The translations under genes and the position numbers were made by a program. 64,000 nt of DNA from Planctomycetota bacterium. GTDB taxonomy: Bacteria; Planctomycetota; JAJSAM01; JAJVHW01. Every line of letters starts with the position of its first letter. Position 1 is the first letter of the stretch. The notes below the pieces were generated by a model that searched no databases, was not told where the DNA came from, and saw only the letters and a list, made by a program, of their open reading frames with translations. The stretch covers positions 558,131 to 622,130 of the forward strand of contig CBDFJG010000001.1 in the NCBI GenBank assembly GCA_965248445.1. The letters are read 5' to 3'. Positions 25,879 through 58,605 of this stretch are shown piece after piece.

Positions 25879-25908
25879 CTCCAAAGTCCTGGACCACGCG
25901 ATCCCTGA
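24889..25908 (+). CDS. IS1595 family transposase (C-terminus frameshifted relative to the truncated copy)
   Basis: N-terminal zinc-ribbon CRWPDGFRCRRCGG...CVGCD; DDE-type core; a 2-bp difference near 25786 gives a different C-terminal tail that reads through the terminal repeat. Confidence 0.8.
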   Translation: MPKPGYPRNIVEFTEQFATEEQCLEYLVQCRWPDGFRCRRCGGKKYWPRPDRRAMRCVGCDLITSVTAGTVLHRSRLPLKSWMWAAYLMTTDKRGVSALALQRQLGLTRYETAYQMLQKLRSAMVAPERAQLFGVVEVDEALIGAPFRGREERTAADKAVVVGAVEVRPTKRGTQPGRIRLRHVPASSKPHLLAFVKDSIERGALVVTDGHETYDAVEKLGYEHGIESTMMGAAQADVLRHLHLVFSNLKTWLVGTHHGRVSKKHLQRYLDEFTFRFNRRRTPQAAFQTVLGIAAKTPPHVRTGLRRRACKPAALLAQDVVGAVINRICMLQSPGPRDP

Positions 25909-26630
25909 GTCTGACGAGCTCGCGCAGTTCCTCGGTGCCGGAGTCGGGCAGCCGCGTGGGCTCCGGGCGTTTCTGGCGAGCGAACCGGGCGAGCCCGAGG
26001 GCGTCGATGGCATCGGTCTTGGTCCGCTGCAGGTCCTCGCCGGCGAAGCGGTGGGTCCGCAGCGGATTGATCAGCACCATGGCGAAACCGCGCGAGAGAA
26101 GCTCCGCCGCCAAGTTGCGCCAGTAGTGCCCGGTCGCCTCCAAGGCCACGAGCACGTCTCGAGGGACGCCGAGCAACTCGAAGAGCTCCTCGTAGCCCTG
26201 TGCGTCCTCACCGAAGGCGGTGGGCCGCACCAGGATCTCTTCGTCCTCGTCCATCACCGCCACGACGTGCTTCTTCGAAGCGATGTCTATCCCCGCGTAG
26301 CGCATCGTGCACCTCCTGTCATGCGACGAGGAGGACCGGGAGCCTCGGAGCCGGCGACCGTACTCATCCTTGTTCATGCGAGGACGCGCGTCTGCGCGCC
26401 TCAGGATCCCGTCCGAGCGTGGGTCGCCGGTCGAGGGCGCCAATCTCATCTCCGAGGACTGCGCCTCGTGAAGGCCGCGGCGACCCTCTCCCGGCTCTCG
26501 TCGATCTCTGTCCACCGTAGGTCGCGGGCATGAGTGGACGTCATACAAGAAGGCCGGTCCCTGCCTCGGTGTAACCCGTAGCGGTTTCCAGAGGCGCTGA
26601 CGGGCTTGCGAGCCCGAGGAGGAACCGGCT

Positions 26631-27674
26631 ATGGCAAAGGCTACACGTTTCGTGATCGGGATGGACCTGGGCGACCGCGTGGTGCCTGTGTGTGTGCTGG
26701 ACCGCAAGACGGGCGAGATCGTGGGCGAAGGGCGCGTCGCGACGACGCGTGCTCGCCTGACGGAGTTCCTCGGCGAGATCGAGCGCTCGAAGGTGGTGAT
26801 GGAGAGCGGGACGCACTCGCCGTGGATCAGCCGCCTCGCCGAGGGTCTTGGTCACGACGTCATCGTGGCCGATGCGCGTCGGCTGCGCGCGGTGTGGGAC
26901 TCGCCCAAGAAGAGTGACCGCCGCGACGCGCTGGTTCTGGCGCAACTGGGGGCCGGGCACCCAGGGCTCCTTCATCCGGTGTCTCACCGGAGCGAGCGCG
27001 CACAGACCCACATGGTCGTGCTCCGAGCGCGCGAGCGTGTGGTCGACGCGCGTACGAAGTTGGTCAATGCCGCGCGGGGCTCGGTGAAGTCGCTCGGGTA
27101 CCGATTGCCCGCTTGCTCCGCTCCGAGCTTCCATCGCAAGGCACGCGAGGCGGTGCCGGAAACCCTCGTGGACGCCCTGGCCCCGTTGTTCGACGCGATC
27201 GCAGCGTTGACGGAGAGCATCGCGCGCTACGACCGCGAAGTCGAGCGTCTCGGCCGCGACGCGTATCCGGTGACACGACGCCTTCGCGAGGTACCCGGCT
27301 GCGGTCCCGTCACCGCGCTCGCCTACGTGCTCGTCGTCCACGACCCAGAGCGCTTCTCGCGCAATCGCGACGTGGGCGCGTACGTCGGTCTCGTCCCGCG
27401 CCAGGACCAGTCGGGCAAGATCGATCGCCAACTCAGGATCACGAAGTGCGGCGACCGGATGCTCCGCCGGCTGCTCGTGCAGTGCGCGCACTACGTGCTC
27501 GGACCACACGGGCCCGACAGCGACCTGAGACGCTGGGGTCTGGAGCTGGCGCAACGGGGCGGGAAGAACGCGAAGAAACGGGCGACCGTCGCGGTCGCCC
27601 GCAAGCTCGCCGTGCTCTTCCACGCTCTGTGGATGAAGGACCGCGCGTACGAGCCGCTCGCTCGAGCGGCGTGA
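26631..27674 (+). CDS. IS110 family transposase (second, different member)
   Basis: 347 aa; N-terminal RFVIGMDLGDR DEDD-type domain; C-terminal LREVPGCGPVTALAYV helix-hairpin-helix region typical of IS110/IS1111. Confidence 0.85.
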   Translation: MAKATRFVIGMDLGDRVVPVCVLDRKTGEIVGEGRVATTRARLTEFLGEIERSKVVMESGTHSPWISRLAEGLGHDVIVADARRLRAVWDSPKKSDRRDALVLAQLGAGHPGLLHPVSHRSERAQTHMVVLRARERVVDARTKLVNAARGSVKSLGYRLPACSAPSFHRKAREAVPETLVDALAPLFDAIAALTESIARYDREVERLGRDAYPVTRRLREVPGCGPVTALAYVLVVHDPERFSRNRDVGAYVGLVPRQDQSGKIDRQLRITKCGDRMLRRLLVQCAHYVLGPHGPDSDLRRWGLELAQRGGKNAKKRATVAVARKLAVLFHALWMKDRAYEPLARAA

Positions 27675-27971
27675 TGACCGACTGAACACCACGAACAACA
27701 CGGGAGTCTGATCGACCGAGCAACGCGCCCACCCGGGCGATGCCCATCTCCCAACTCGAAGGCGCGACGACTGCGGTGGCTGAACGGGCCCGGCCCCGGC
27801 CGAGGCCGCGTAACTGATGGCAGCGTCGCCCTCGAGCGGATGCCTCAACGTGCACCGGGTCCAAACGACCCCCTGACGAGTGCGGATGGATGCGTGCAGA
27901 GGGAGCCGGCATCGGCTGCGGTGGACGGATCGCCAAGTCGATCCGACGCCTTGACACAAGAGGCCTTCTCA

Positions 27972-29502
27972 TGGACGTTCAGCCATTGTGTCTGAGCCCG
28001 TATCCAGATCTCCGAGCGGGTTGACGATGAACACCATGTGGGCAAGGACGACCTCCGCGAGTTGATCGAGCGGCAGTCGCGGCGTCTCGCTGCCCAGGAC
28101 GAGAAGATCGCTGAGCAGCAGCGTGTCATCGAGGGGCAGCAGGAGGAGATCGCAGATCTTCGGAACCGCCTGAAGCGGGATTCGCGCAACTCGTCGCGGC
28201 CGCCGTCCTCGGACGCGCCGTGGTCCAAGCGTCGGCGCCGGCGAAAGCCCCCGTCGGACAAGAAGCAGGGCGGCCAGCTGGGTCACGAGGGCAGGACGCG
28301 GCGGCTGGTGGACGAGGACGAGGTCGATGACGTCGAGGACCACCGCCCGAGCGAGTGCTCGAGCTGCGGGGGCAAGGAGCTCGAGCCGCTGGCGCGTCGT
28401 CCGCACCGCCACCAGGTGTGGGAGATCCCGCGGGTGCTGGTCCCGGTGACCGAGCATCGTCTTCACCGTGCGCGCTGCCGGGAGTGCGGCGAGGTGGTGG
28501 CGGCGGCGTTGCCCGAGGGCGTCACCAAGAGCGCCTTGGGCCCGCGGCTGAGCGCGCTTGCGGCATCCTTGAGCGGCGTCTACCGCGTGAGCCGCCGCGA
28601 GGTCTCCCGGCTTCTCTCGGAGGTCTTCGGTGTGACGATGTCGCCCGGCACCGTGAGCGCCATCGAGGGACGGCTCGGTGAAGGGCTCTCGCTGCCGCAC
28701 ATCCAGGCGCTTGGCGCGGTGCGCACGAGCTCGGTGGCCAACGTGGACGAGACGCCGTGGAGCGAACGTGGCGAGCTGCGCTGGCTCTGGACCGCGGTGG
28801 CCGAAGGCGTTACCGCGCACCGCATCGACTCCCGCCGCAACGCGGCCGCGATGAAGCGCCTGATCGGCCGGCGCTATCGCGGGGTGCTGGTGACCGACCG
28901 CATGGGCGCCTACGACAAGCACCCGCTCAAGAGGCGCCAGCTCTGCTGGGCCCACTTGGAGCGCGACTTCCGCGCTCTCGCCGAAGGGCCGCGGGGCGGA
29001 TGGGTCTTCGGCAAGAAGGGCGTCGAGATCGCGGGGGCCGTGATGCGAGTGCACCGCGGCTTCCGCGGCCACGGCGACCGCACCCGGCTCGCGCGCCAGC
29101 TCCGCGATCCCAAGCGCCGGCTCCGCCGCCTGCTCGAACGCGGGGCACGCGCCAAGCACTGTCCGGTCAGGGGCATGTCCAAGCACCTGCTGGCGCGCTT
29201 CGATGCGCTCTTCACCTTCGCCGAGGTCCCCGACGTCGACCCTACGAACAACGCCGCCGAACGCGCGGTCCGCAAGCCGGTGCTCTGGCGCAAGGGCTGC
29301 TACGGCAGCCAGTCCGCTCGCGGCGAACGCTTCGTCGAGCGAGTGCTCACGGCCACCGCGACGCTGCGCCGCCGGGGGGGCAAGTCTTCGACTTCCTCGC
29401 CGACTCGCTCGCCGCGCACGTCTCCGGCGCCGACCCACCCGTCCTCGTCAGCCTGCCGATCCCGCGCTGAGGATCAGGGCCCCCGAAGGGCTGAACGGGT
29501 AC
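27972..29502 (+). mobile_element. IS66-family element (type C) with degenerate left end
   Basis: Right terminal repeat GAAGGGCTGAACGGGTAC at 29485-29502; left end only partially matches (ACGTTCAGCC near 27972); boundaries approximate. Confidence 0.55.
28038..29470 (+). pseudogene. IS66 family transposase with frameshift in a G-homopolymer
   Basis: Protein matches IS66 transposases until a 7-G run at 29374-29380; the expected C-terminus (GGQVFDFLADSLAAHVSGADPPVLVSLPIPR) continues in the +1 frame (ORF 28757..29470). Confidence 0.8.
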
Positions 29503-29931
29503 GTCGAGGTCGCCCGCAATGCGATCACCGGCACTCCGGCTCCTCGGCTCGTCCCTCAGGCCGCCTCGGCCTGAGGCTGGATACCCACGTGAACGGGTAC
29601 TCGCGCTCTACCGGAGACTCCAGGTGACTCGCCCGTTCTCTGCCCCCTGTTCCAGTATGACGACCGACATCAATGGCGACTTCAGTCGGACGTCTCGACT
29701 GTCCACAATCTCACCGCCCGCGATCGTCTGTGACACCGTCTCCTTGTCCAGCGTGTTGAAGTAGACGGTCAACCGCGAACCAGCCGGTTCGGGAGCGTCA
29801 TTCCGTACGACGACCGCCCGTCCTCGTCGAGGGAGGTTCGGGGTCGATCTGATCCAGATCCGGAACGTCTTCGCGCGCGACAGCGCTGAGGTGGTCGTGA
29901 TGTCGCGGGCGGTGTCGGGCGTTCCATCCAC

Positions 29932-31463
29932 GTACCCGTTCAGGGTATGACGATCCGCGGCCTCAGCGCGTGATCGGGAGCGCGACGAGAGCCGGCGGCG
30001 AGCGGTTGTGCGCGAGTGCCGCGCTGACGTCTGCGAGGTAATCGAAGACGCTCTCGCCACGCTGGCGGAGCGTGGCGGTGACGGTCAGGATGCGCTCGAC
30101 GAAGCGGAGTCCGCGCTCGCTCTGACTTCCGTGCGTTGCGCGTCTCCACAGGACCGGCTTGCGCACCGCGCGCTCAGCGGCGTTGTTCGTCGGGGAGACG
30201 CCAGGGACGTCGGCGAAGGTCCACAGAGCCTCCGCTCGGTCGAGCAGATGCCGAGTCGTTCCGCGTACTCGGCGGTGCTTGCTGTCTGCGCCGCGCACGA
30301 GCAGCGTCAGGAGTCGGTCCCATGTGAGACGCAGCTCACGCCGCATGCGGTCGCGGTCCCCGTGCTCGCCGAAGTGACGCTGAGCTCGCATGACAGCCTG
30401 GGCGAGACGCACGGCCTGCTTGCCGAAGCGCCGGCCGCCGCGCGAGCCCTCGGCCAGCGCTCGAAAGTCCCTCTCGAGATGCGCCCAGCAGATCTGGCGG
30501 CGCTCGGTGGGATGCTGGTCGTAAGCGCCCATACGGTCGGTCACGAGGACGCCCCTGAAGCGCTTGCCCACGAGTCGCCGCATGGCCTTGGCGCTCCTGC
30601 GCCGATCGATACGATGGACCGTGGCGTGCTCACAGACCGCGCTCCACAGCCAATGCAGCGTGCCACGACGCGACCACGGTGTCTCGTCTACATAGGCGAC
30701 GCTGCTCGTGCGTACGGCCCCGAGGGCCTCGATGTGCGCTGAGGAGATGGCTCCCGACACCCGCTCCTCGATCGCACTGACCGTGCCCGGTGACATCGAG
30801 ACGCCGATGACGTCACGCAACAGACGACTGGTCTCGCGCCGCGACAGGCGGAAGACGCCGACCAGAGCCGCGGTGAGCGCACAGAGTCGCGGGCCGAAGG
30901 GACTCGCCGTCACACCGCTTGGCAGCGAGGCAGTGGACGTGGCGCCACAGTCCGTGCACCGTGCCCGGTGCAACCGGTGCTCGGTCACCTGGATCAGCCG
31001 TGGCGGGACCTCGAAGACCTGCTGGCGTGTCGGGGCGCGATCGATCGGGACGAGCACGTCGCTCCCACACGCGCTGCACTCGCGCGGGCGGTGGTCCTCT
31101 ACGCCATCGACCTCGGACTCGTCCACGAGCTTGCGCGTCGCCCCTTTGTGGCCGGGCTGCGCACCCTGGCGCTTGTCCGACGGCGGCTTGCGCCGCCGCC
31201 GCTTCTTGGACCACGACGGATCCGAGGACGGTGGGCGCGAGGAGGTGCGGGAGTCCCGGCGAAGACGGCTCTCGAGATCGTCGATCCGTGCCGCCTGCCG
31301 CTCGATCACCTCCGCCTGCTCGGCAATCGTCTCGTCCCGAGCGTCCAGACGACGGGTCAGGCGCTCGACCAGATCACGCAGCTCATCGGTGCCCACATCC
31401 GATTCATCGACCGAACGGAAAGCGATCTGGATCCGAGCTCAGAACCAAGGGCTGAACGGGTAC
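29932..31463 (-). mobile_element. IS66-family element (type B), copy 2, no target-site duplication
   Basis: Same terminal repeats and same internal ORF set as copy 1; flanks CCATCCAC and ACGCGCGC do not match; right end abuts a truncated IS1380 transposase. Confidence 0.85.
29963..31396 (-). CDS. IS66 family transposase
   Basis: 477 aa, identical to ORF 22426..23859. Confidence 0.9.
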   Translation of the reverse strand: MGTDELRDLVERLTRRLDARDETIAEQAEVIERQAARIDDLESRLRRDSRTSSRPPSSDPSWSKKRRRRKPPSDKRQGAQPGHKGATRKLVDESEVDGVEDHRPRECSACGSDVLVPIDRAPTRQQVFEVPPRLIQVTEHRLHRARCTDCGATSTASLPSGVTASPFGPRLCALTAALVGVFRLSRRETSRLLRDVIGVSMSPGTVSAIEERVSGAISSAHIEALGAVRTSSVAYVDETPWSRRGTLHWLWSAVCEHATVHRIDRRRSAKAMRRLVGKRFRGVLVTDRMGAYDQHPTERRQICWAHLERDFRALAEGSRGGRRFGKQAVRLAQAVMRAQRHFGEHGDRDRMRRELRLTWDRLLTLLVRGADSKHRRVRGTTRHLLDRAEALWTFADVPGVSPTNNAAERAVRKPVLWRRATHGSQSERGLRFVERILTVTATLRQRGESVFDYLADVSAALAHNRSPPALVALPITR

Positions 31464-40527: not shown

Positions 40528-41537
40528 AGACGCACCTCGACAAGATCGCTTCCTGCACCATCAACGCGAAGCTCGACCGCGAGGTCGAGGTCAGCGACCA
40601 GCTCGCGCCGGAACTCGGGCGGGTGGTCGTCGTGCGCGCATTGCGCGAGAAGACCGTCTACGACAAGGTCGAGCTGGTCAGCGGCCGCATGGCGAAGATC
40701 AGCAAGGACGACGTGATCGCGGGTGTGCTCGGCCGGCGTCGCGCGTTGCGCGGCTTCGTCGGTGACATCCCGGACGAGATCCGCGTCGGCGACCGGGTGC
40801 ACATCCTGAACATCGGCGGCGTCGTCGGCGTCGTCGTATCGGGCAACCTCGACCTCGGACAGCCGCTGCTCTGCGAGGTCGTGGGCGCGGTCATGCACAA
40901 CGGCGAACCGGCCAGCATCTCGAAGGGCATCCCGCCTCCGCCGGACACGCTCGGTGACGTGCCACTGATCCTCGTCGAAGGCACGTGCATGAACTCGGGC
41001 AAGACTTACGCGGCTGCAACGCTCATCCAGAAGCTGACGCAGCGGGGCTACCGGCTGAACGGCGCGAAGTTGACGGGCGTCGCGTGCATGCGCGACCAGC
41101 TCAACATGGAGGACCACGGAGCCGTGCGCACGAAGAGCTTCCTCGACGTGGGGCTGCCCTCGACCGTCGGCGTCGACGACGTCGCGGGCGTGGCGCGAAC
41201 CCTCCTCGCGGACCTCGCGAGCGACAAGCCCGACGCGATCATCGCCGAACTCGGCGACGGCATCATCGGCTACTACGGCTGCGACAAGATCCTGGCCGAC
41301 CCGGAGATCCGCAGGGCGACCAAGGCGCACGTCATGTGCGCCAACGACCTCGTCGGCGCGTGGGGCGCGGTCGAGGTCATGCGCAAGTGGGGTCTCGAGA
41401 TCGACGTGCTGACCGGACCGGCGACGGACAACGACGTGGGCGAGGGCTACGCGAAGCAGGAACTGCGGCTGCCGGCAGCGAACGCACGGCTCAACCCGCA
41501 CAAGCTCGCCGACCTGGTCGAAGGCCTGGTGTTCTGA
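40524..41537 (+). CDS. P-loop-containing protein of unknown function embedded in the arginine operon (possibly DUF1611/DgcN-like)
   Basis: 337 aa; ATGA overlap with argG stop and TGATG overlap with argC start; Walker-A-like GTCMNSGKT. Family assignment is from recollection and unverified. Confidence 0.55.
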   Translation: MKTHLDKIASCTINAKLDREVEVSDQLAPELGRVVVVRALREKTVYDKVELVSGRMAKISKDDVIAGVLGRRRALRGFVGDIPDEIRVGDRVHILNIGGVVGVVVSGNLDLGQPLLCEVVGAVMHNGEPASISKGIPPPPDTLGDVPLILVEGTCMNSGKTYAAATLIQKLTQRGYRLNGAKLTGVACMRDQLNMEDHGAVRTKSFLDVGLPSTVGVDDVAGVARTLLADLASDKPDAIIAELGDGIIGYYGCDKILADPEIRRATKAHVMCANDLVGAWGAVEVMRKWGLEIDVLTGPATDNDVGEGYAKQELRLPAANARLNPHKLADLVEGLVF

Positions 41538-42604
41538 TGATCGCGACGGCCGGACCGTCGACGCGATTCAAGATCGCCATCGCCGGTGCCAGCGGCTACG
41601 GCGGCGCGGAGATGCTCCGCTGGATCGCGGTGCACCCCAATCTCGAGGCGTGCGCGGTGACGTCGCGCCGCAACCAGGGGCGCGCCGTGCCGGAGGTGCA
41701 CCCGAATCTGGCCGGCTTCCACGACGACCTGAACTTCGTCGGTAACGTCGACGACATGCTCGCGACGGAGCCGCAGGCAGTCGTGCTCGCCGTGCCGCAC
41801 AAGACCGCTGCCGACATGGCGCTGAAGGTGCAGACGGCACTCCCGGACGTCCCGATCGTGGATCTGTCCGGCGACCATCGCCTGGACGACCCGGACTCGT
41901 ATCGCGCGCACTACGGCGTGACGCACCCCCACCCCGGCGCACTGACGTCCGGCGAGTGGGTGTACGGGTTGAGCGAGGCAAACCGCGATCGCATCTGCAA
42001 CGCGCGTCTCATCGCCAACCCCGGCTGCTACGCGACCGGCGCGGCACTCGCCGCGCTGCCGCTCTCGGAAGAAGGGCTGATCGCCGGACCGGTGCGGCAC
42101 GTGGCGATCACCGGCTCGTCCGGCGGGGGCGTCGAAGCAAGACGCGGAACTCACCATCCCGAACGGGTCGAGAACGTGCGCGCATACAAGGTGCTGGCGC
42201 ATCAGCACGTGCCCGAAATCGTGCGGTGCCTGCGCGAACACGGGATGGGCGACCACGCGTGGCACATGGTCCCGCAGTCCGGTCCGTTCGCCCGCGGCAT
42301 CCTGACGACGCTGTTCGTCGAGCTCACGCGAGAGATGACGGGCGACGAGTTGCGCGGCATCTACGACGGCGCGTTCGAGAACGAGCCTTTCGTGCGCATG
42401 CGCGACGGCTCGCCGCAGATCGCCCACGTGCACGGCACGAACTTCTGCGACATCGCCGTGCACGTGGATGGCAAACAGGCAGTCGTGCTGTCGGCGATCG
42501 ACAACCTCGGCAAGGGCATGGCCGGACAGGCCGTGCAGAACCTGAATCTCCTCCTCGGCCTGAACGAGGCCGCTGGCATCGCGGTGCCCGGGAGCCGGCC
42601 GTGA
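41537..42604 (+). CDS. argC: N-acetyl-gamma-glutamyl-phosphate reductase
   Basis: N-terminal Rossmann IAIAGASGYGGAEMLR; catalytic-Cys region LIANPGCYATG. Confidence 0.9.
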   Translation: MIATAGPSTRFKIAIAGASGYGGAEMLRWIAVHPNLEACAVTSRRNQGRAVPEVHPNLAGFHDDLNFVGNVDDMLATEPQAVVLAVPHKTAADMALKVQTALPDVPIVDLSGDHRLDDPDSYRAHYGVTHPHPGALTSGEWVYGLSEANRDRICNARLIANPGCYATGAALAALPLSEEGLIAGPVRHVAITGSSGGGVEARRGTHHPERVENVRAYKVLAHQHVPEIVRCLREHGMGDHAWHMVPQSGPFARGILTTLFVELTREMTGDELRGIYDGAFENEPFVRMRDGSPQIAHVHGTNFCDIAVHVDGKQAVVLSAIDNLGKGMAGQAVQNLNLLLGLNEAAGIAVPGSRP

Positions 42605-43767
42605 CCGAGGATATCCGCGACGCCGAGGCGCGGTACGGCATCCCGACGTACTCGCAGCTCCCGCTCACACTGGTGCGCGGCGAGGGCTGCTACGTCTGGG
42701 ACAGCGACGGCAACCGACACCTCGATCTCTACGGCGGGCACGCGGTTGCGCTGACCGGGCATTGCCACCCGCGCGTCGTGGCGGCGATCCGAGAGCAGGC
42801 AGGCAAGCTGCTCTTCTACAGCAACGCCGTGTCGAGCGACGTGCGTGCACGCGCACTCGAAGACCTGGCAGCGACGGCGCCCGAAGACGGCTTCCGCGTG
42901 TTCCTCTGTAACTCGGGGACAGAGGCGAACGAAGCCGCCATCAAGCTGGCGCGAAAGACGACCGGACGCCGTGAGGTCCTCTCGATGGAGGGCGGTTTCC
43001 ACGGCCGCACGATGGGATCGCTGTCGGCGACACACCTCGGCCACTACCTCGCGGACTACGCCCCCGGAGTGCCGGGACACCGGTTCATCCCGTTCGGCGA
43101 CCTCGACGCCGCAAGCGCCGCGATCAGCAGCGAGACCGCTTCGGTCATGCTCGAGCCGATCCAGAGCATGGCGGGGATGCAGACCGCCACGGACGAGTAC
43201 CTGCGCGCGCTCCGCGCGCGGTGCGACGAACACGGTGCGCTGCTGCACTTCGACGAGGTGCAGACGGGGCCGGCGCGGACCGGAACCTGGTGGTACGGCG
43301 ATCACGGCGGGGTCGTGCCGGATCTCATCAGCACGGCCAAGGGCCTGGCGAGCGGCGTACCCGCGGGTGCGGTGCTCGCGCGGGCGAACGTCGCCGAGGC
43401 GGTTCGGCACGGCGACCAGGGCACGACGTTCGGCGGCGGGATGCTCGCGTGCGCGGCGATCTCGGCAACGCTCGCCGTCGTGCGCGACGAGGGCCTGCTC
43501 GAGAACGCGACCCGGCGCGGCGCCGAGATCACAGAAGGCGTCTCGGCGCTCGCGGGCGTCACGGACGTGCGCGGACGCGGCATGCTGTTAGGGATCGCGC
43601 TCGATCGGCCGGCCAAGCCCGTCGTCGCGGCGCTACGCGATCGAAGGATCCTGACCGGCACGACGGTCGGCGATGCGCACGTCCTGCGCATCCTGTCCCC
43701 CATCACACTCGGCGACGCTCAGGTGGCGACGTTCATCACACAGCTGGGCGAGGTGCTCGATGCGTAA
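42601..43767 (+). CDS. argD: Acetylornithine (class III) aminotransferase
   Basis: GTG start overlapping the argC stop; CNSGTEANEAAIKLARK; PLP-lysine region DLISTAKGLASG; FDEVQTG. Confidence 0.85.
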   Translation: MTEDIRDAEARYGIPTYSQLPLTLVRGEGCYVWDSDGNRHLDLYGGHAVALTGHCHPRVVAAIREQAGKLLFYSNAVSSDVRARALEDLAATAPEDGFRVFLCNSGTEANEAAIKLARKTTGRREVLSMEGGFHGRTMGSLSATHLGHYLADYAPGVPGHRFIPFGDLDAASAAISSETASVMLEPIQSMAGMQTATDEYLRALRARCDEHGALLHFDEVQTGPARTGTWWYGDHGGVVPDLISTAKGLASGVPAGAVLARANVAEAVRHGDQGTTFGGGMLACAAISATLAVVRDEGLLENATRRGAEITEGVSALAGVTDVRGRGMLLGIALDRPAKPVVAALRDRRILTGTTVGDAHVLRILSPITLGDAQVATFITQLGEVLDA

Positions 43768-44761
43768 CCTGCTCTCGCTGGCGGACCTGCCGGGCAGGGA
43801 ACTGGAAACCCTCCTCGCAGAGGCCGCGCGCATCGCGCGTGACGGCCCGGATCCCACGGCCCTGCGCGGCAAGCGCGTCGCTCTGCTCTTCCTCAACCCA
43901 TCGCTGCGCACGCGCACGTCGATGGAACTCGCCGCCAAGACGCAGGGGGCGCACTCCGTCACGCTCGTGCCCGGCGCCGACGCTTGGAAGGTGGAGCTCG
44001 AACGCGGCGCGGTCATGAATGGAGAGGCTGCGGAGCACATGGTGGACGCGATCCGCGTGCTCTCGCGCATGTGCGACGGGATCGGCGTCCGCACGTTCGC
44101 TGGATTGCGCGACGCCGACGAGGACCGGCAGGAGCGCGTGCTCTCTCTCATCGCGGAGGAGAGCACCGTTCCCGTCGTGAACATGGAGTCGGCTTTGGAT
44201 CACCCGCTCCAGGCGCTGGCCGACCTGCAGACGCTGCAGGAGGAACTGGGTGATCTGCGCGGTGCGCCGGTCGCGCTGACGTGGGCGCCTCATCCGAAGG
44301 CGCTGCCGATGGCGGCGGCCGCCGCTTTCCTGCGCGGTGCCGCGCGCGTGGGCGCGGACGTCCGCGTCGCCGCCCCCGAGGGGTTCGCGCTGCCGGACGA
44401 ACTCGTGGAGGAGGCGCGCACGCTGCTTCCCGGCACCGGCAGCGTCTCCACCACGAACGACCAGCGAGCGGCCGTGCAAGGCGTGCGCGCCGTGTACGCC
44501 AAGGCCTGGGCGGCTCCGGCTCTCTACGCGGATGCGGCCGCCGGAAGCGCTGGACGCGATCGAAACGCCGCCTGGACCGTCACGGAGGGTCTGATGGCGG
44601 AGGGCGCCGACGCGGTGTTCCTCCACTGCCTCCCCGTGCGCCGCAACGTGGTCGTCACGGACGAGGTGCTGGACGGGCCGCGCAGCCGCGTGTACCGCGA
44701 AGCGGAGCACCGGTATCACACGGCTTGCGCCGTGCTGAGCCGCGTGCTGGGAGGCGCGTGA
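43760..44761 (+). CDS. Transcarbamylase of the N-acyl-ornithine type (ArgF-prime-like)
   Basis: Carbamoyl-phosphate motif region SLRTRTS, HCLP motif present, but the canonical ornithine-binding DxxxSMG segment is replaced (VYAKAWAAPALY). Confidence 0.7.
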   Translation: MRNLLSLADLPGRELETLLAEAARIARDGPDPTALRGKRVALLFLNPSLRTRTSMELAAKTQGAHSVTLVPGADAWKVELERGAVMNGEAAEHMVDAIRVLSRMCDGIGVRTFAGLRDADEDRQERVLSLIAEESTVPVVNMESALDHPLQALADLQTLQEELGDLRGAPVALTWAPHPKALPMAAAAAFLRGAARVGADVRVAAPEGFALPDELVEEARTLLPGTGSVSTTNDQRAAVQGVRAVYAKAWAAPALYADAAAGSAGRDRNAAWTVTEGLMAEGADAVFLHCLPVRRNVVVTDEVLDGPRSRVYREAEHRYHTACAVLSRVLGGA

Positions 44762-45672
44762 TGGACGACGTGAAGATCCTGATGCAGGCGCTGCCCTACA
44801 TCCGCGCGCACCGCGGGAAGACGTTCGTCGTCAAGTTCGGCGGCGCGGTCGTGGAGAACACGGAGGCCTTGGCCACTCTCGCAAAGGACGTGTCCCTGCT
44901 CACGAGCGTCGGCATCGACATCTGCATCGTCCACGGTGGCGGGCCGCAGGCGACGGCGATGTCCGAGAAGCTCGGCCTCGCGCCGAAGTTCGTCGAGGGT
45001 CGCCGCATCACGGACGCCGACACGCTCGAGATCGCGAAGATGGTCTTCGCGGGCAAGATCAACCTCGAGATCCTCGGCGCCCTGCGCGCGCAGGGCTTGA
45101 GTGCGGTCGGGCTCTCCGGGGTCTCCGGCGACCTCGTGCAGGCCGTCCGTCGCCAACCCACGGAGTATCGCGACGACGATACGGGCGAGAAGCGTGTGGT
45201 CGACATGGGCCACGTGGGCGACATCGAAAGTGTCGACACGTACCTGCTCCGAGAGCTGATGGACACGGGCCACGTACCGGTCGTGAGTTCGCTGGCCGCG
45301 GACGGTGACGGCAACTTCCTGAACATCAACGCCGACACGGTCGCGACGGCCATGGCGGTCGATCTCGCGGCCGACAAGTTCCTGCTGATGACCAACGTCG
45401 ACGGCATCCTCCGCGACAAGGACGACCCGTCGTCCCTCGTCGCGACCGTGACCGCCGCCGAGGCGGAGAAGCTGATCGAGGACGGTGTGATCGCCAGGGG
45501 CATGATCCCGAAGGTCAACAACGCCCTCGACGCGCTGCGCGGCGGCGTGGATCGCGTGCACATCCTGAACGGCGAGCGTCCGCACACGCTCCTGACCGAG
45601 CTGCTCACGAAGCGCGGCAACGGCACCTTGCTCACGCTGGAAGAACAGCCGCCGGGGTACCTCATCGGATGA
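44761..45672 (+). CDS. argB: Acetylglutamate kinase
   Basis: FVVKFGGAV, IVHGGGPQ, amino-acid-kinase family pattern; ATGA overlap with the upstream stop. Confidence 0.9.
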   Translation: MDDVKILMQALPYIRAHRGKTFVVKFGGAVVENTEALATLAKDVSLLTSVGIDICIVHGGGPQATAMSEKLGLAPKFVEGRRITDADTLEIAKMVFAGKINLEILGALRAQGLSAVGLSGVSGDLVQAVRRQPTEYRDDDTGEKRVVDMGHVGDIESVDTYLLRELMDTGHVPVVSSLAADGDGNFLNINADTVATAMAVDLAADKFLLMTNVDGILRDKDDPSSLVATVTAAEAEKLIEDGVIARGMIPKVNNALDALRGGVDRVHILNGERPHTLLTELLTKRGNGTLLTLEEQPPGYLIG

Positions 45673-46757
45673 GCACGCCGGTGTTCACCGCGGACGACCC
45701 GGTCGACCTGACCGTGCGCCTGGTCGAGACGCCGTCGGTCTCCGGCGGTGAGTCGGCGGTCGTCGGCCTGATCGCCGAGGGGCTGCGCGCCGCAGGACTG
45801 CGGCCGATCGTGACCGGCCGCAACGTGCATGCCGTCGTAGAGGGCAAGCGCCCTGGCCGCCACACGCTCCTGCTGCAGGGGCACATCGACACGGTGCCCG
45901 CTGGACAGGATTGGACCCGCGATCCGTGGCGCGCGTCGCGAGAGGACGGGCGGATCTACGGCCTCGGGTCCAACGACACGAAGGGCGGCGTCGCCGCGAT
46001 GATCTGCGCTTTCGCGGACCTCGCGAAGACGCGGGACTTCGGCGGGACGCTCGTGTTCGCTGCCACATGCGATGAGGAGACCGGCGGCGAGGGCCTCGAG
46101 ACACTGCGCCCCCACCTGCCGCCGCTGACCGGCGCGGTGATCGCTGAGCCGACGACGCTGCGAGTCTGCACGGCTCAGCGCGGGTTGATGCGAATCGTCG
46201 TCGCGTGCCACGGCCGTTCCGCGCACGCGTCGCGACCGTGGCAAGGCAGCAACGCGATCGAGTTGGCGCTGGCCGACATCGCGGCTCTCCGCGCGATCGA
46301 GGCGCCGGACGTGCACCCGCTGCTCGGACGCACGACCTGCACGCCCACCATGATCGAAGGCGGCGTCGGGTCCAACGTCGTCCCGCCGCTCTGCCGCTAC
46401 ACACTCGACGTGCGCCCCACGCCCAACTACCCGAACGCGTGGTGGGAGGAGCGCATCCGGGCCACGGTCCAGGGCGAGATCGAGGTGTTCCGGGGTCGCA
46501 TGGTGCCGGTGGAGACCGAGCCCGGAGACCGGCTCGTGCAGGCGGCACTCCTGGCGGCCGCCACCGGCGACGCGGCACCGTTCGGCGGCGTCAGCGATCT
46601 GTTCCACGTGCGCGACGTCGCCGGCGTCGTGCTCGGTCCAGGGCGCTCGGAGCAGAGCCACTCCCCCGACGAGTGGGTGGAGGAAGAACAGGTGCGTGCG
46701 GCGGTCGCCGTGTACCGCGACCTTGTGCTGAGTTACCTGACGGGAGAGGCCGCATGA
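45669..46757 (+). CDS. argE: M20-family deacylase (acetylornithine or acetylcitrulline deacetylase-like)
   Basis: LLLQGHIDTVPAG metal-binding His/Asp region, GSNDTKGG, M20 dimerisation region; ATGA overlaps on both sides. Confidence 0.75.
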   Translation: MSTPVFTADDPVDLTVRLVETPSVSGGESAVVGLIAEGLRAAGLRPIVTGRNVHAVVEGKRPGRHTLLLQGHIDTVPAGQDWTRDPWRASREDGRIYGLGSNDTKGGVAAMICAFADLAKTRDFGGTLVFAATCDEETGGEGLETLRPHLPPLTGAVIAEPTTLRVCTAQRGLMRIVVACHGRSAHASRPWQGSNAIELALADIAALRAIEAPDVHPLLGRTTCTPTMIEGGVGSNVVPPLCRYTLDVRPTPNYPNAWWEERIRATVQGEIEVFRGRMVPVETEPGDRLVQAALLAAATGDAAPFGGVSDLFHVRDVAGVVLGPGRSEQSHSPDEWVEEEQVRAAVAVYRDLVLSYLTGEAA

Positions 46758-48172
46758 CCAAACGCAAGAACCCCGCGACATCGCGCACATCCAAGCGGGG
46801 CCTGTGGGGCGCACGGTTCGACGGCGGACCGTCGGCCGCGATGCGCGCGATCGGGGACTCGCTGCACGTCGATCAGCGTCTCGTGGACCAGGACCTCCGC
46901 GGGTCGATCGCTCACGCGCGCATGCTCGGAGACCAGGGCATCCTACGGAAGGCCGACGCACGGAAGATCGTGAGCGAGCTCGGCAAGATGCGACGCGAGA
47001 TCGCGCGCGGGGAACTCGTCGTGGAGGGCGCCGACGAGGACGTCCACTCCTGGATCGAACGCGTCCTGACGGAGCGGATCGGCGACGACGGCGCACGGCT
47101 GCACACGGCCCGAAGCCGCAACGATCAGGTTGCCACGGCGTTCCGCCTCTTCCTGCGGGACGGGACCGCGGAGGTCAACGACGCTCTGCGCGCACTGCAG
47201 TCGTCTCTGGTCGCGCGGGCGGCCGAGATGATCGGCGTCATCGTGCCGGCGTACACGCACCTCCAGCGGGGCCAACCTGTGCTTCTGTCGCACCAGTTCC
47301 TGGCCTACGTGGAGATGCTCGAGCGCGACCGCGGACGGTTCCTCGACCAGGCGCGCCGCATGAACGAGTGCCCGCTCGGCGCGGGCGCGGCAACCGGCGT
47401 GCCGTATCCCATCGACCGCGCCGCGACGGCGAAGGAACTCCTGTTCGATCGGCCGACAGCCAACTCCATGGACAGCGTGGCGGATCGCGACTTCGCTGCG
47501 GAGTGGCTGGCCGCAGCGGCAATCCTCGCCGTGCATCTCTCGCGGCTGGCCGAGGACATCTGCCTATGGGCGTCGTCCGAGTTCGGGCTTCTCTCGCTCG
47601 GCGACGCGGTCTCGACGGGCTCGTCGATCATGCCTCAGAAGCGCAACCCCGACGGCGCGGAGCTTGTGCGCGGGAAGGCCGGTCGCGTGATCGGCTCGCT
47701 GGTGTCCCTTCTGACGACCCTCAAGGCGCTGCCGCTGACGTACAACCGCGACCTGCAGGAGGACAAGGAGGTCGTGTTCGACGCGCTCGACACGTCCCTC
47801 GTGTGCCTGCGCATGCTGGACGACACGCTCGCAGAGAGCCGCTTCGTGCCGGAGGCGGCCGCGCGGCTGCTCGAGGGCGGACACCTGCTGGCGACGGAAC
47901 TGGCGGACTTCCTCGTCGGGAAGGGCGTCCCGTTCCGACTCGCGCACGAGGCGGTCGGCGAGGTTGTGAAGGAGTGCGACGACCGAGGCGTCGACCTCTC
48001 CGAGCTGTCGGAGGAGGACCTGGTCGCGCTGCACCCGCGCTTCGCGGACTGCGCAGAGACACTCGACTTCGCCAGCGCCGTGGATCGGCGCGACCACCTC
48101 GGGGGCACGGCGACGAAGCGCGTACGCGCTGCCATCCGCAAGTGGGTGCGCCGCCTCGCGCCGCGGAGGTAG
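46754..48172 (+). CDS. argH: Argininosuccinate lyase
   Basis: Fumarate-lyase signature GSSIMPQKRNPD; 472 aa from ATG at 46754 (the ORF track extends an N-terminal artefact from 46205). Confidence 0.9.
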   Translation: MTKRKNPATSRTSKRGLWGARFDGGPSAAMRAIGDSLHVDQRLVDQDLRGSIAHARMLGDQGILRKADARKIVSELGKMRREIARGELVVEGADEDVHSWIERVLTERIGDDGARLHTARSRNDQVATAFRLFLRDGTAEVNDALRALQSSLVARAAEMIGVIVPAYTHLQRGQPVLLSHQFLAYVEMLERDRGRFLDQARRMNECPLGAGAATGVPYPIDRAATAKELLFDRPTANSMDSVADRDFAAEWLAAAAILAVHLSRLAEDICLWASSEFGLLSLGDAVSTGSSIMPQKRNPDGAELVRGKAGRVIGSLVSLLTTLKALPLTYNRDLQEDKEVVFDALDTSLVCLRMLDDTLAESRFVPEAAARLLEGGHLLATELADFLVGKGVPFRLAHEAVGEVVKECDDRGVDLSELSEEDLVALHPRFADCAETLDFASAVDRRDHLGGTATKRVRAAIRKWVRRLAPRR

Positions 48173-48181
48173 TCGATCCGG

Positions 48182-48760
48182 ATGGAACTCGACGACGCCG
48201 TCGTGCGCAACGCTTTGCGCCCCGCCACCGGAGACTGGCGATCGTCGAACGACCTGAAGGACGCCGCCGTACTTCTGCCGTTGCTGCGTCGGGACGGCGC
48301 CGATCACCTGCTCTTCACGCTGCGCCGCGCGGACCTGCCCGACCACCCAGGCCAGGTTGCGTTCCCCGGCGGGTCACGCGACGCGGGCGAGGATGTCGTG
48401 ACGTGCGCCCTGCGCGAGACCGAGGAGGAGGTCGGGCTCCCGGCCGACCTGCTGACGCCGCTCGGCCGCCTGCCGGAGCGCGTCTCGATCGCGGGCTTTC
48501 TCGTCGCGCCGGTCGTTGCGCGGCTCACACGTGAGCATCCGCCCGTGCCGGATCTGCGCGAGGTCGAGGACGTCTTCGACGTCCCACTCTCCGCACTCCT
48601 CGACAAGAGCCTCTGGCGTTTCGAGTCGCTCTCGACACCTCGGGGCAACTTCAACCACATCCCGTACTTCGACGGCGGACGCCACACTGTCTGGGGACTG
48701 ACCGCCGTGATCGCCCGCGACTTCCTGCGCAGCGTGCTGGAGTTCGATCCGGGCCCGTGA
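48182..48760 (+). CDS. NUDIX hydrolase (CoA-pyrophosphatase-like)
   Basis: Nudix box GGSRDAGEDVVTCALRETEEEVGL. Confidence 0.75.
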   Translation: MELDDAVVRNALRPATGDWRSSNDLKDAAVLLPLLRRDGADHLLFTLRRADLPDHPGQVAFPGGSRDAGEDVVTCALRETEEEVGLPADLLTPLGRLPERVSIAGFLVAPVVARLTREHPPVPDLREVEDVFDVPLSALLDKSLWRFESLSTPRGNFNHIPYFDGGRHTVWGLTAVIARDFLRSVLEFDPGP

Positions 48761-55028: not shown

Positions 55029-56402
55029 TCAACGGGTTCGAAGTGGAGCGTGGAACTTCACGAAGAGCCGGCCGGCACGGGTCACGACCAACACCCGGCC
55101 CGCGAGGGCCTCCGGGGCACCTTCCGGCGGCAGCGTGACATCGCACTCGACCCAGACCGAGAGGCGTCGGCCTGCGCCCAGCGCGGTCCGCCTCGTGGGC
55201 TGTCCGATGCGCAGCCGCTCATCCGTGAACTCCAGCAGCGGAGACGCAACCAAGTCGGCCGTTCGCAACCCCTTCGCGAAGTGCAGACCAACGTGCAGAC
55301 GCACGAGGGCGCGTCCCGTGCTGTCGCCGACGATCACGGTCTCGACGGTGATGCGCTCCCCGGCGTTCTCGGACCCGGCGAAATCAAGCTCGCTACGCTC
55401 GACCGTCTTGCGCACGCGCGGATCGAGCAACTCCGCACCGGAGAGGCCCGTACGGAGGTCGAGCGGGTGCTCGTCGCGCGGCTGTATCGACCGCCGGGCT
55501 TCGCTGACCCACGGATAGAACGGGTACGGCTTGTCGAGCAACGGCCCGTACTGCTGGATGCGACGACGCCAGATGTACTGCTTCTTCCGGAGATCCAGGG
55601 CGCCGGACCAGGCGTCCACAGCCCGTTGGAAGTCCCCCGGCTGCGCACCGTTCGAGTCGTGGCGCATGCGATGCGCAACGCCCAGGCGGAACCGCGCGGC
55701 CGCGTCCTCGGAGTGCGTGTCGACGTACGCGCCGATCGTCTCAATCGCTCCGTCGCGAGCGTCCTCGGAGCCCCACAGCAGGGATGTCAGGGCCTCGAAG
55801 TACTTGCGATCGGGAGCCGTCCGAGCCATCCCGTCGAGCTCGATCAGACGACCCTTGGCGTGCGCGCCGTCGGCCGGCGGCAGGTCATCGGGGGCGTCGA
55901 ACGCGACGTCGAGGAACTCCTTCTCGATCGTCTCGAGCGTCGGCCGTTTGGAACGCACGACGCCGTGTTCGTCGACCAGCGTCAGGTTCGGCACGGCGGC
56001 AGCCCCCGTGACGTTCAGCGGATCCCACAGGATCGGCCAGTCGATCTCGTGCCACTGAGCGAACAGGCGCGCGCGGTCCCGGTGCTGTTCCTGCACGATG
56101 CCGATGACCGCGAGCTTCCCGCTCTTGCGCCACTTCTCGGTCGCGCGGTGCCACACGGGCACCTTCTTGCGGCAACCCGCTCACCAGGAGGCAAACTCGA
56201 TCAGGAGCAACTTCTTGCCGCGGTAGTCCGAGAGGCGGACCGTCTGCTCACCGTCGATCGTTGGCAATCGCACGTCGGGCAGGACCTCCCCGATCGCGGC
56301 CCGTGCCGGCTCTCGGTCGCCCGCGATCGCCACGGCGCTGAGCGTAACGACAAGCATTGTCGCGAGCCTGCGTGGACGCATCACAAGCCTGCGTGGACGC
56401 AT
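55029..56402 (-). CDS. Candidate selenoprotein: secreted TlpA/ResA-like thioredoxin-fold protein with in-frame TGA (Sec) at 56181-56183, plus ~300-aa C-terminal domain
   Basis: ORFs 56181..56402 and 55029..56162 share a frame and are separated only by the TGA; translation ...GKKLLLIEFASW-[TGA]-AGCRKKVPVW... puts the TGA at the first Cys of a thioredoxin CxxC motif; signal peptide present; hairpin 18 nt downstream. Confidence 0.6.
56147..56180 (-). promoter_or_regulatory. Candidate SECIS-like hairpin downstream of the in-frame UGA
   Basis: mRNA: UGA-GCGG-GUUG-CCGC-AAGAAG-GGUGCC-CGUGU-GGCACC; perfect 6-bp stem with 5-nt loop 18-34 nt after the UGA, preceded by a 4-bp minihairpin. Confidence 0.3.
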
Positions 56403-56773
56403 CAGAAGAAGCCGTGATCCAGGTCCACCTCGTGGCTGTCCAGGACCCCTTCACTCAGCCGGATCGTGACTGTGCCGTGCGTGTTTCCCGGATCGATGTC
56501 CGCAGCGACACGCGCAAAGCGATCCTTGCCGTGGGAGTCCTTCCACCGCACGCGGACCTTTTCGGTCGGTGCGGTGGGCTCGACCTTGACGCTGTCGCTG
56601 GCGCCGTCTTCCAGATCATCGAGCGGGTACTCCGTCCCCTGTACCTCGACCCGCACTGACGTGAGTGTCACGCCGGACACGTTCTCGACGACAACCCGGA
56701 TGCCCTTGCCGAGCGCCACCCACACGAAGAGTGCGATCGTGAGCACCGCGACGACTACCGCGACCTTCTTCAT
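56402..56773 (-). CDS. Small membrane-anchored or secreted protein (123 aa)
   Basis: ATG at 56773 overlaps the upstream stop (ATGA); its own stop overlaps the next start (ATGA); N-terminal hydrophobic helix MKKVAVVVAVLTIALFVWVAL. Confidence 0.5.
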   Translation of the reverse strand: MKKVAVVVAVLTIALFVWVALGKGIRVVVENVSGVTLTSVRVEVQGTEYPLDDLEDGASDSVKVEPTAPTEKVRVRWKDSHGKDRFARVAADIDPGNTHGTVTIRLSEGVLDSHEVDLDHGFF

Positions 56774-58605
56774 TCGTCGTCCTCTTCTTCGGTGGCGGGC
56801 GGCACTTCGCTCGCGAGCGGGATCCACTCGACGTACCCGATCATCATCTCCTCCGAAGTCTGCTCCCCGAAGCGCACTCTGCGCGTGGGGTCGGGATTGG
56901 CCGGGTTGTCGGCGCTGTTGTCGAACCACGCAACGCAGTCGATCCGCGCTCCGGCAGGCACGTCGATGGGATCGCGGAGGCGGTAGTTCAGCTGCCAGTT
57001 GAAGTCGTACCGCGGCACGTCGAGGAGCCGCGTGCGCTCCCCGTCCGGCAGCACCAGTTCGTAACGGAAGCCGGCACCGCGGAGGTGCATGTGCGGCGTG
57101 AGAGACAGCAGACGCGCCGGCTGGCGGAACGAGTGGTCCGCGCGAACTGCGTGGCGCTTCGCACCGGGGGGGATGCGGAAGCGAGTATTGTGGATGCCCG
57201 TCGAACGCACCTCGTGGTCCGGGGGGCCGTCCGTGAACACGAGACCGAGCCGCGGTCGGTCCTGCACCGCCTCGCCGTTCGGCGTGTAGTGGATCTGGAA
57301 GCGCAGGCGCGCGCCCTTCGGCAAGAAGCGCCCGGACGCGCGCGGGAACACCAGGTGGTTCTGTCCGGGGACCATCGCTGCGAAGTACCCGGAGACACCA
57401 TTCTGGTCGCGCGGCTGCTCCATCATCCGCGGGTGTGACGCCGGATAGTGGCAGAACACGAGGATGTGGTGCACGACCTGGGGGTGCGTCGGCTGCACCT
57501 CGAACGCGCGCACCCACTTGTCCTCGTCGAACGACGTGGTCAGCGTCTGATACTGGTACTGCATGATGCCGTCGGCCGGCACGTCGGTCGTCTTGGGCAC
57601 GTCGATCACGACGTCCGGCCGGCCGATGTTCCAGCCGGTCGCCCGCGCGATCGGTAGGGGCGCGTCCGACGTCTCGCCCTCTGGGCAGTCGCCCGCGATC
57701 CACTCGAGAAGCGTCGCGCGCTCCCGCTCGGTGAGACTCAGGTCGTTGCCCATCGGCACGGAGTGGGCCGCGTCGGCAAACCACGGCGGCATGACCCGAC
57801 GCTCGACGACATCGGCGATCATCGCGCGATGCCCGCGCACCTCCTTGTACGACGTCAGCGAGAAGGGCGCGCTTTGCTGCGGCCGATGGCACGAGACGCA
57901 CCGACGATCGACGATGCGCGCCACGCTGCCGTGGTACGTCGGCAGTTCCTCCGCCGCAAGCGCATCGCCGGCTGCGACTGCGCACCCCGGAGCGGTCGTG
58001 GCGGCGACGTCCGGCGCGGCGTTCGCCGCCACCGACGCCAGCGCGTCACGCAGGTAGTGGTGCCGCGCCGCCGCGAGCGCGTAGCCGAACCCGTAGCGAT
58101 CGTCGATCGCACCGCGGTAGACCAGTGTGCGCGCGCCGTCGAGGACGAACGCCTCGGTCGTCGTCCCGACGCGCAGCGCCCGGGCCAGCTCACCGCCTGG
58201 ATCGTGGATCCAGCGGCCGGAGACACCGGTCTTCTCCCGGCTCGTGCGCACCATCTCGACCGTGTCGGCCTCACCGACGCCGAGCACGATGCAGACGATC
58301 CCGTCTTTCTCGAACTGCGCCGAGAGTGACTTCTGCGTCGGGCCGTACCGCTTGGACAGCGGGCACGTGGTCGAACGGGCGAGCACCACGACCGTCTTGC
58401 CCCTGTACTCCGACAGCCGTCCGACCTTGCCGTCGATGTCAGAGAACGCCGCGTCCGCAACGAGGACCCCGACGCCGGCTGCGGCCGCGTCGAGTGTGCG
58501 CGGCGCCTGGCGCACGGCGCTCTCGCCCTCCCCCGCGGTGATGCTCACGGGCCACGCGACGCACGCAATGCCGAGGAGGGTCAGCAGAGTGCGTATGACC
58601 GTCAC
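56770..58605 (-). CDS. Periplasmic fusion protein: thioredoxin-like (CxxS) domain + c-type cytochrome (CxxCH) + Cu-monooxygenase-like domain
   Basis: GTG at 58605 with GGGAGA SD, overlapping the upstream stop (GTGA); signal peptide TLLTLLGIACVAW; redoxin-like block with TTCPLS; heme motif CVSCH; C-terminal His/Met pattern HHILVFCHY ... HMHLRG ... MMIGY reminiscent of type II Cu monooxygenases. Confidence 0.7.
   Translation of the reverse strand: MTVIRTLLTLLGIACVAWPVSITAGEGESAVRQAPRTLDAAAAGVGVLVADAAFSDIDGKVGRLSEYRGKTVVVLARSTTCPLSKRYGPTQKSLSAQFEKDGIVCIVLGVGEADTVEMVRTSREKTGVSGRWIHDPGGELARALRVGTTTEAFVLDGARTLVYRGAIDDRYGFGYALAAARHHYLRDALASVAANAAPDVAATTAPGCAVAAGDALAAEELPTYHGSVARIVDRRCVSCHRPQQSAPFSLTSYKEVRGHRAMIADVVERRVMPPWFADAAHSVPMGNDLSLTERERATLLEWIAGDCPEGETSDAPLPIARATGWNIGRPDVVIDVPKTTDVPADGIMQYQYQTLTTSFDEDKWVRAFEVQPTHPQVVHHILVFCHYPASHPRMMEQPRDQNGVSGYFAAMVPGQNHLVFPRASGRFLPKGARLRFQIHYTPNGEAVQDRPRLGLVFTDGPPDHEVRSTGIHNTRFRIPPGAKRHAVRADHSFRQPARLLSLTPHMHLRGAGFRYELVLPDGERTRLLDVPRYDFNWQLNYRLRDPIDVPAGARIDCVAWFDNSADNPANPDPTRRVRFGEQTSEEMMIGYVEWIPLASEVPPATEEEDDE

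Follow-up and report, generated by a model that had tools for sequence, protein, structure and literature searches.

Comparative evidence strongly supports reading an in-frame TGA codon in the 64-kb window (the whole stretch of Planctomycetota DNA analysed here) as a selenocysteine (Sec) codon. We consider it highly probable that positions 55029..56402 of the minus strand are one gene, coding for a secreted TlpA/ResA-like thiol-disulfide oxidoreductase that would use Sec as the nucleophile of a W-U-A-G-C site and whose decoding would be directed by an RNA hairpin. The recoding site is conserved among orthologs, as is the structured RNA that follows it, the domain around it has a thioredoxin fold, and orthologs are linked to Sec genes. 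In the mechanism we propose, the UGA at 56181-56183 would be decoded by Sec-tRNA(Sec) delivered by SelB, and SelB would be recruited by a Sec insertion sequence (SECIS) hairpin inside the open reading frame (ORF), which starts 17 nt downstream and appears to be built from the codons of a conserved V-P-x-W-H motif. Once exported, the selenol of the protein and its resolving Cys77 may reduce or isomerise periplasmic disulfides, or act on another oxidised sulfur or selenium substrate. Selenium incorporation, SelB binding, export, the substrate and the direction of electron flow are steps that we infer.

An in-frame TGA at a thioredoxin-type active site

Two minus-strand ORFs, 56181..56402 and 55029..56162, lie in one frame, with the single TGA at 56181-56183 as the sole interruption between them. 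Read through, they yield a product of 457 residues (...GKKLLLIEFASW-U-AGCRKKVPVWHRATEKW...) that ends at its own TGA terminator, 55029-55031, and the context of the internal codon reads ...LLLIEFASW-U-AGCRKKVPVWHRATEKW.... An earlier note on this stretch had claimed this layout and had placed the TGA at the nucleophilic Cys of a TlpA/ResA-type CxxC motif; re-reading of the minus strand bears out the former, and alignment to the WCxxC of solved thioredoxins the latter. In phmmer comparisons with PDB sequences the TGA column coincides with the first Cys of ASWCxxC in 2ls5 and 2yp6, and TlpA (1jfu) and ResA chains match the region around it, while the Pfam families AhpC-TSA (4.4e-12; 46.5 against a cut-off of 26) and Redoxin (3.7e-9) span the TGA, covering residues 37-151. 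The resolving Cys, in an xGC or xSC motif, is kept in all listed TGA-bearing loci.

A structure model was made of a natural full-length Cys form of the protein, P0089, using an 87-sequence family alignment, and of the C-terminal fragment of the window copy. The P0089 model (mean predicted local distance difference test score 91.8, predicted template modelling score 0.90) has a disordered signal region and a beta-sandwich at residues 356-480; a profile search of PDB sequences with this C-terminal domain returned chance-level matches only. Upstream of the TGA, a hydrophobic run of at least 10 residues stands in the same frame in 69 of 80 genes (the window copy and 79 orthologs). The 5' end of the window ORF also carries a 21-nt tandem duplication (56361..56402, minus strand; ATGCGTCCACGCAGGCTTGTG / ATGCGTCCACGCAGGCTCGCG), which encodes MRPRRLV / MRPRRLA and thereby creates two in-frame ATGs of identical context.

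Same-frame ORF pairs split by one TGA numbered well over a hundred in a naive scan of the window, whose GC content is 68%, and we discarded that scan as evidence. Because single TGAs and hairpins of the kind described below are both common in the window, the significance of the locus rests on comparative evidence and not on the window alone. A reassignment of UGA, as in genetic codes 4 and 25, was rejected on stop-codon usage: TGA ends 28 of the 36 domain-supported genes of the window, the selenoprotein gene itself and 34 of the 80 family genes, and is thus an ordinary terminator of both sets.

For the comparison we scanned one genome per GTDB species with the family alignment and assembled 80 loci. 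Their hosts are mostly Planctomycetota, joined by Acidobacteriota, Gemmatimonadota, Verrucomicrobiota, Armatimonadaceae and others, and include strain Poly30, with a complete genome (CP036434.1, locus L050); further orthologs come from the complete genomes CP070675.1 (L045) and CP070806.1 (L049). The closest relative of the window copy, L001, is 53% identical to it. In the FASW-x-x(G/S)C column, 79 loci have the codon TGA and the remaining one has GAC. No stop codon occurs within 60 codons upstream of the TGA in any of the 80 genes, and variation is of the coding type on both flanks, with entropies at the three codon positions of 0.82/0.48/1.43 bits over the 17 codons before the TGA and 0.82/0.64/1.33 over the 36 codons after it. 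The earlier note had allowed for homologs that consist of two separate genes; what was found instead is a TGA kept in nearly every locus, with one open frame on both sides. Since the TGA, the frame and the coding conservation are shared among the loci, a nonsense mutation, a sequencing error and a two-gene arrangement are in effect excluded as accounts of the site.

The downstream hairpin and the selenocysteine machinery

The hairpin that the earlier note had described downstream of the TGA is present at 56147..56163, encoded by the codons for K-V-P-V-W-H-R, with 17 nt between the UGA and the stem and a loop that begins 23 nt after the UGA. The published bacterial SECIS (bSECIS) model specifies a loop of 3-9 nt, a stem of 4-16 bp, a G in the first two loop positions, a spacing of 16-37 nt and a folding energy (dG) of -7.5 kcal/mol or lower (PMC13188914). 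The window hairpin falls within all of these limits (dG -9.4, spacing 23, loop CGUGU), as do the hairpins of 61 of the 79 orthologs, and the other 18, which have 5-bp or G·U-containing stems, miss the energy cut-off only. The suggestion that it is a plausible bacterial SECIS therefore agrees with the published model, and the conserved structure to be expected in orthologs is likewise there, with covariation, and is lost in most homologs that do not have the TGA.

Among the 68 orthologs of the main group, 98% of the cells in the two arms of the helix (columns 21-26 and 32-37, the TGA being columns 1-3) are paired, whereas sliding the partners gives 18-46%. The closing pair is CG in 47 of these orthologs, GC in five (the window copy among them), UA in four and UG in four, while the pair formed by the third position of the Val codon and the first of the His or Tyr codon is GC in 64, AU in two and GU in two. 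None of 500 shuffles reached the observed score, and RNAalifold predicts the same helix. Codon choice follows the stem as well: its Val codon is GTG in 66 of 68 orthologs and GTA, found only opposite U, in two, compared with 39.6% GTG at the other Val codons of these genes. The 11 members of a subgroup with an RGC motif have W-N in place of W-H and for that reason lose the main helix, but form another in its stead, 5-6 nt upstream, in which one GC pair has changed to AU in a compensatory manner. As a negative control we took eight uninterrupted genes with Ser at the Sec position, where the homologous register keeps two to six of the six pairs (mean 3.9, one gene intact); the helix is degraded in seven of the eight, and none of them has a bSECIS-like hairpin.

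Several observations weigh against the selenoprotein reading. Neither selA, selB, selD nor a tRNA-Sec was found within the 64-kb window by ARAGORN, by Rfam, by Pfam scans of 50 ORFs or by tblastn with real SelA, SelB and SelD sequences. Of the 1,342 TGAs in the window, 12% are followed by a hairpin that passes the bSECIS criteria, and after 6% the hairpin equals or exceeds the candidate in stability; with a background pass rate of 12% these criteria alone are weak evidence. The fold of the window region, taken as a single sequence, has a z-score of only -1.43, which is not significant alone. The hairpin is a short one, in which conserved amino acids already fix four of the six pairs. Moreover, the Cys form P0089, an Asp form (L074) and one Ser form (P0042) retain most or all of the pairing; its retention in the first two implies that amino-acid conservation contributes to the helix, and a recent loss of Sec would explain it. 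At gathering threshold Rfam reports only a tRNA-Arg in the window, and it has no match in 55900-56450 at E up to 10, a result that we treat as uninformative.

Some of these points lend support to an alternative according to which the selenoprotein is real but the hairpin is a by-product of the V-P-x-W-H codons, the functional SECIS being larger or lying elsewhere. The pairs set by amino-acid identity, the persistence of the helix in the three non-Sec forms just named and the background of 6-12% all fit this account, and the window fold contains a second small helix, GCGG...CCGC, directly after the UGA. It does not explain, however, why the free positions co-vary (the third Val position with the first of His or Tyr, and the flanking codon positions with each other), why GTG is fixed where some 40% would be expected, why most Ser forms have lost the helix along with the constraint on V-P, or why the W-N subgroup gains a substitute helix at nearly the same place, and so we regard it as unlikely.

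Outside the window, the orthologs of two lineages adjoin machinery for Sec. In a Phycisphaerales metagenome-assembled genome (MAG; locus L061) the ortholog lies within a selenium island that comprises selD (AIRS/AIRS_C), selB (GTP_EFTU, SelB-wing_3 and the SelB beta-barrel), selA (PF03841, 1.7e-122) and a tRNA-Sec (ARAGORN anticodon TCA; Rfam RF01852, 70.5 bits against 47), followed by a deiodinase-like gene, the ortholog and a peroxiredoxin (Prx)-like gene. The two genes that flank the ortholog are themselves probable selenoprotein genes: the deiodinase-like one (4707..5855 of that locus) has a TGA at 5100 (FGSYT-U-PPF), and the Prx-like one (7460..8434) has a TGA at 8102 (YRAHW-U-PFC) and an N-terminal domain of about 175 residues. 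In a Verrucomicrobia MAG (L062), the ATG of the ortholog comes 39 nt after the end of a selB gene, which has SelB-wing_2/3 domains. Complete sets of Sec genes have been documented in several Planctomycetes (PMC4807772).

This linkage bears on the possibility that the UGA is read through without Sec, by near-cognate Trp or Cys insertion, or that the Sec machinery was lost and the gene is a recent relic. The window, where no such machinery was seen, would be compatible with it, and the divergent C-terminal domains of the window copy and L001, which have no Cys pair, could indicate relaxed constraint. Yet if Cys or Trp were functional at this site, a one-step change to TGC, TGT or TGG would be strongly favoured, and 79 of 80 loci have kept the TGA, along with a hairpin that is lost where another codon has taken the place of the TGA. 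Nor does the window copy look like a relic, with its intact ORF, its optimal hairpin and a compensated G-C closing pair, and orthologs stand next to selB, selA and selC; we hold this possibility to be very improbable.

Gene calls, family forms and surroundings

Public gene calls split the locus into a 58-aa stub (P0121) and a 375-aa product (P0001) on the same 654-kb contig. More than 1,100 homologs came up in a protein search, nearly all of 375-400 aa and starting at (M/V)PVWH, and so gene callers cut the family at exactly this point. Most of the 301 cluster representatives found at E <= 1e-30 in a full-library phmmer search start at query residue 78-80 and are thus truncated at the TGA, and truncation at the Sec codon recurs in every public gene call of the family that we examined. 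Release 20 of NCBIfam has no model for the family. Given these truncated calls and the absence of a model, Planctomycetota, Acidobacteriota, Gemmatimonadota, Verrucomicrobiota and other phyla have hundreds to thousands of genes on record as 'hypothetical / TPR protein' without their catalytic half. The main practical value of the finding lies in annotation: we read the locus as a selenoprotein gene that has been wrongly divided into two ORFs, and it may constitute a new entry at the level of families.

The gene callers' model would be correct if the TGA were a true stop, separating a secreted stub of 58-73 aa from a protein of about 375 aa with its own GTG or ATG start; the callers choose it consistently, and a GTG (the Val of VPVWH) is always on hand to serve as a pseudo-start. 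But the hairpin constraint accounts for this ever-present GTG, the split would cut the thioredoxin fold between strand beta1 and the active-site helix and leave neither product with a complete domain, every locus keeps one frame across the TGA, and the Ser and Cys forms, which have no interruption, are each one polypeptide of 467-500 aa. We give a true stop hardly any credence.

One ortholog, L057 from a Gemmataceae MAG (about position 6277), has the conserved TGA and the hairpin sequence, and in addition an in-frame TAG four codons after the TGA (AGCR-TAG-HVPVWH); it may be a decaying gene or an assembly error. Decayed copies may therefore exist, and a single window is insufficient to decide, but with the same TGA column in 79 of 80 independent assemblies across phyla, purifying selection on both flanks and the remaining 383 codons intact, the chance that the window TGA is a nonsense mutation or a sequencing or assembly error in a pseudogene of a CxxC thioredoxin-like gene is negligible.

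The uninterrupted minority consists of P0089 and 12 other forms, the latter mostly with Ser at the Sec position (FASWSEEC, FATWSDEC, YASWSEAC and similar). P0089 (CAES) is the sole Cys form found in the family. The earlier note had looked to Cys-containing homologs to confirm the column, and in part this held, since P0089 has TGC there and the column aligns with Cys; the common non-Sec residue of the family, however, is Ser and not Cys. The Ser codons of L083-L090 are of both the TCN (TCC, TCT, TCG) and the AGY (AGC) kind, and these are not interconvertible in one step, which hints at more than one route or event of Ser replacement. An acylphosphatase gene immediately precedes two of these genes, L084 and L088.

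In the last strands of the C-terminal beta-sandwich a C-x6-C pair is nearly invariant, occurring in at least 70 of the 77 complete Sec forms and in P0089, and in none of the 12 other non-Sec forms. That Sec and this pair are retained together suggests that the UxxC site and the C-terminal pair are linked by a redox relay, in which the ScsB/DsbD-alpha-like beta-sandwich would probably be the relay partner in most family members. The Ser clade may represent a single evolutionary event, so that the statistics of co-retention should not be over-read. The window copy and L001 keep Sec and the hairpin and have a divergent C-terminal domain from which the pair appears to have been lost.

We put forward only tentatively, as possible but on balance doubtful, the broader proposal that these proteins are a distinct and uncurated selenoprotein family (at least 301 clusters at 50% identity, E <= 1e-30), mis-called nearly everywhere, in which Sec is near-obligate and a Ser clade has neither the Cys pair nor most of the hairpin, with a dedicated selenol-to-dithiol relay between a TlpA-like and an ScsB/DsbD-alpha-like domain on a TPR scaffold and a SECIS within the VPxWH codons. 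If it is true, RNA and protein constraints are entangled in those codons. That Ser rather than Cys replaces Sec is of consequence for prediction pipelines built on Cys homologs, and it bears on why Sec is kept at all. The selenoproteomes of abundant environmental phyla would gain a secreted oxidoreductase that has several domains and uses Sec, and the family is open to experiment through Poly30, a cultured member strain whose genome is complete.

Directly upstream of the selenoprotein gene is a 123-aa gene (Table 1) whose TGA stop overlaps the selenoprotein ATG (TGATG), an arrangement that suggests translational coupling, and the two are probably co-transcribed. Two places upstream (56770..58500, minus strand) is a gene for another secreted protein with a redoxin domain (AhpC-TSA 1.3e-7). 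Its product has a T-C-P-L-S site, carries RRCVSCH, which resembles a CxxCH heme-binding motif, and is rich in His in its C-terminal half (HHILVF..., HMH); beside the orthologs elsewhere no homolog of this gene occurs. More generally, the neighbours in the window have no homologs beside any of the 80 orthologs, the loci share no recurrent neighbour family, and for want of conserved synteny we dropped operon-based inference of function. Farther away, the window holds a dense cluster of insertion sequences (IS) at about 1975..3375 and 15495..31400, where the IS66 copies at 22.4 and 30 kb are of equal length and have peptide strings in common, and an arginine cluster with genes for argininosuccinate synthase, a semialdehyde dehydrogenase (ArgC-like), a class-III aminotransferase, ornithine carbamoyltransferase, an amino-acid kinase and an M20 peptidase (ArgE-like).

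Table 1. Positions of the selenoprotein locus and of other features in the window
Feature	Position	Strand	Remarks
Complete ORF of the probable selenoprotein	55029..56402	minus	457 residues + TGA stop at 55029-55031
Alternative in-frame ATG starts of this ORF	56381 and 56357	minus	
UGA, probable Sec codon	56181..56183	minus	residue 74, first position of the U-A-G-C redox motif
Resolving Cys codon	56172..56174	minus	Cys77 of the UxxC motif
Signal-peptide-like N-terminus (MRPRRLVMRPRRLATMLVVTLSAVAIAG)	56319..56402	minus	predicted from the sequence; with 21-nt tandem duplication
TlpA/ResA-like thioredoxin-fold domain	55950..56294	minus	residues 37-151
Helical TPR-like domain	55485..55808	minus	family signature QYIWRRRIQQYGP(L/R)LDKPYPFY
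C-terminal seven-stranded beta-sandwich	55032..55358	minus	without C-x6-C pair in the window copy
Candidate bacterial SECIS hairpin	56147..56163	minus	GGUGCC-CGUGU-GGCACC; 6-bp stem, 5-nt loop, dG -9.4 kcal/mol
Small membrane-anchored protein gene	56402..56773	minus	123 aa; one N-terminal hydrophobic helix, no Pfam family
IS66-family transposase ORFs (four)	1975..3375, 22426..23859, 28038..29627, 29963..31396		
IS110-family ORFs	24057..24890, 26631..27674		
IS1595-family ORFs	20307..20915, 24889..25908		
DDE_Tnp_1_4 transposase	15495..16922		
Arginine-biosynthesis cluster	39286..48200	plus	

Comparison with known systems

Catalogues from 2005 onwards list selenoproteins with a thioredoxin fold and a UxxC site under the names of 'Prx-like', 'Redoxin family' and 'thiol-disulfide isomerase-like' proteins (PMC1088965, PMC2398784, PMC13188914), and the kind of protein described here is therefore well known. 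The family has in common with them the AhpC-TSA and Redoxin matches, a UxxC motif with Sec first, a hairpin inside the ORF directly downstream and an occurrence in environmental bacteria. It differs from them in its fixed architecture of thioredoxin, TPR and beta-sandwich (C-x6-C) domains, in its QYIWRRRIQQYGPRLDKPYPFY signature and in having Ser forms where Cys forms are nearly absent. A catalogued fused domain with three conserved Cys residues includes a CxxC, whereas the C-terminal domain of the family, compared with it by description, has C-x6-C and no CxxC. The signature strings of the family were not found in the part of the GOS sequence supplement that was searched, which gave generic FASWU matches only, and the family may already be listed in the catalogues under a generic name.

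Despite the Pfam match, an assignment to peroxiredoxins (AhpC/TSA) proper was rejected, as the site is W-U-x-x-C and not the T/S-x-x-C(U) motif of that group; a thioredoxin-like W-U-x-x-C site is the catalogue definition of 'Prx-like' as opposed to Prx (PMC1088965). The best NCBIfam match is NF041054, 'ResA-like WAxxUGC motif-containing protein' (WAxxUGC_long), a curated family of long-form ResA-like selenoproteins. Membership in it was rejected as well: the score is 57.7 bits against a cut-off of 300, and the motif W-A-x-x-U-G-C, judged from the name, is unlike FASW-U-A-G-C. Compared with the bSECIS consensus and the SECIS of E. coli fdhF, the latter of which has a bulged U, the window hairpin has a stem of only 6 bp, with no extended lower stem conserved.

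With TlpA, ResA, CcmG (DsbE) and Etrx the family shares the TlpA-like thioredoxin architecture, its W-U-A-G-C standing at their W-C-x-x-C site, at the N-terminus of helix 1; it differs from them in having Sec for Cys, in a C-terminal region of about 300 extra residues and in having no conserved neighbourhood with genes for cytochrome c maturation, copper or other functions. The NCBIfam scores of the window protein are 42.6 bits against 170 for ResA (NF002854), 30 against 230 for TlpA (NF047696) and 18.4 against 123 for DsbE (TIGR00385), and on this basis it would resemble these proteins in its working while being an equivalog of none. For the other end of the protein, a likeness to the N-terminal periplasmic domains of ScsB and DsbD (alpha), an Ig-like sandwich with a redox-active Cys pair, is possible, and we tentatively compare with them the C-terminal beta-sandwich with its C-x6-C pair in most members of the family.

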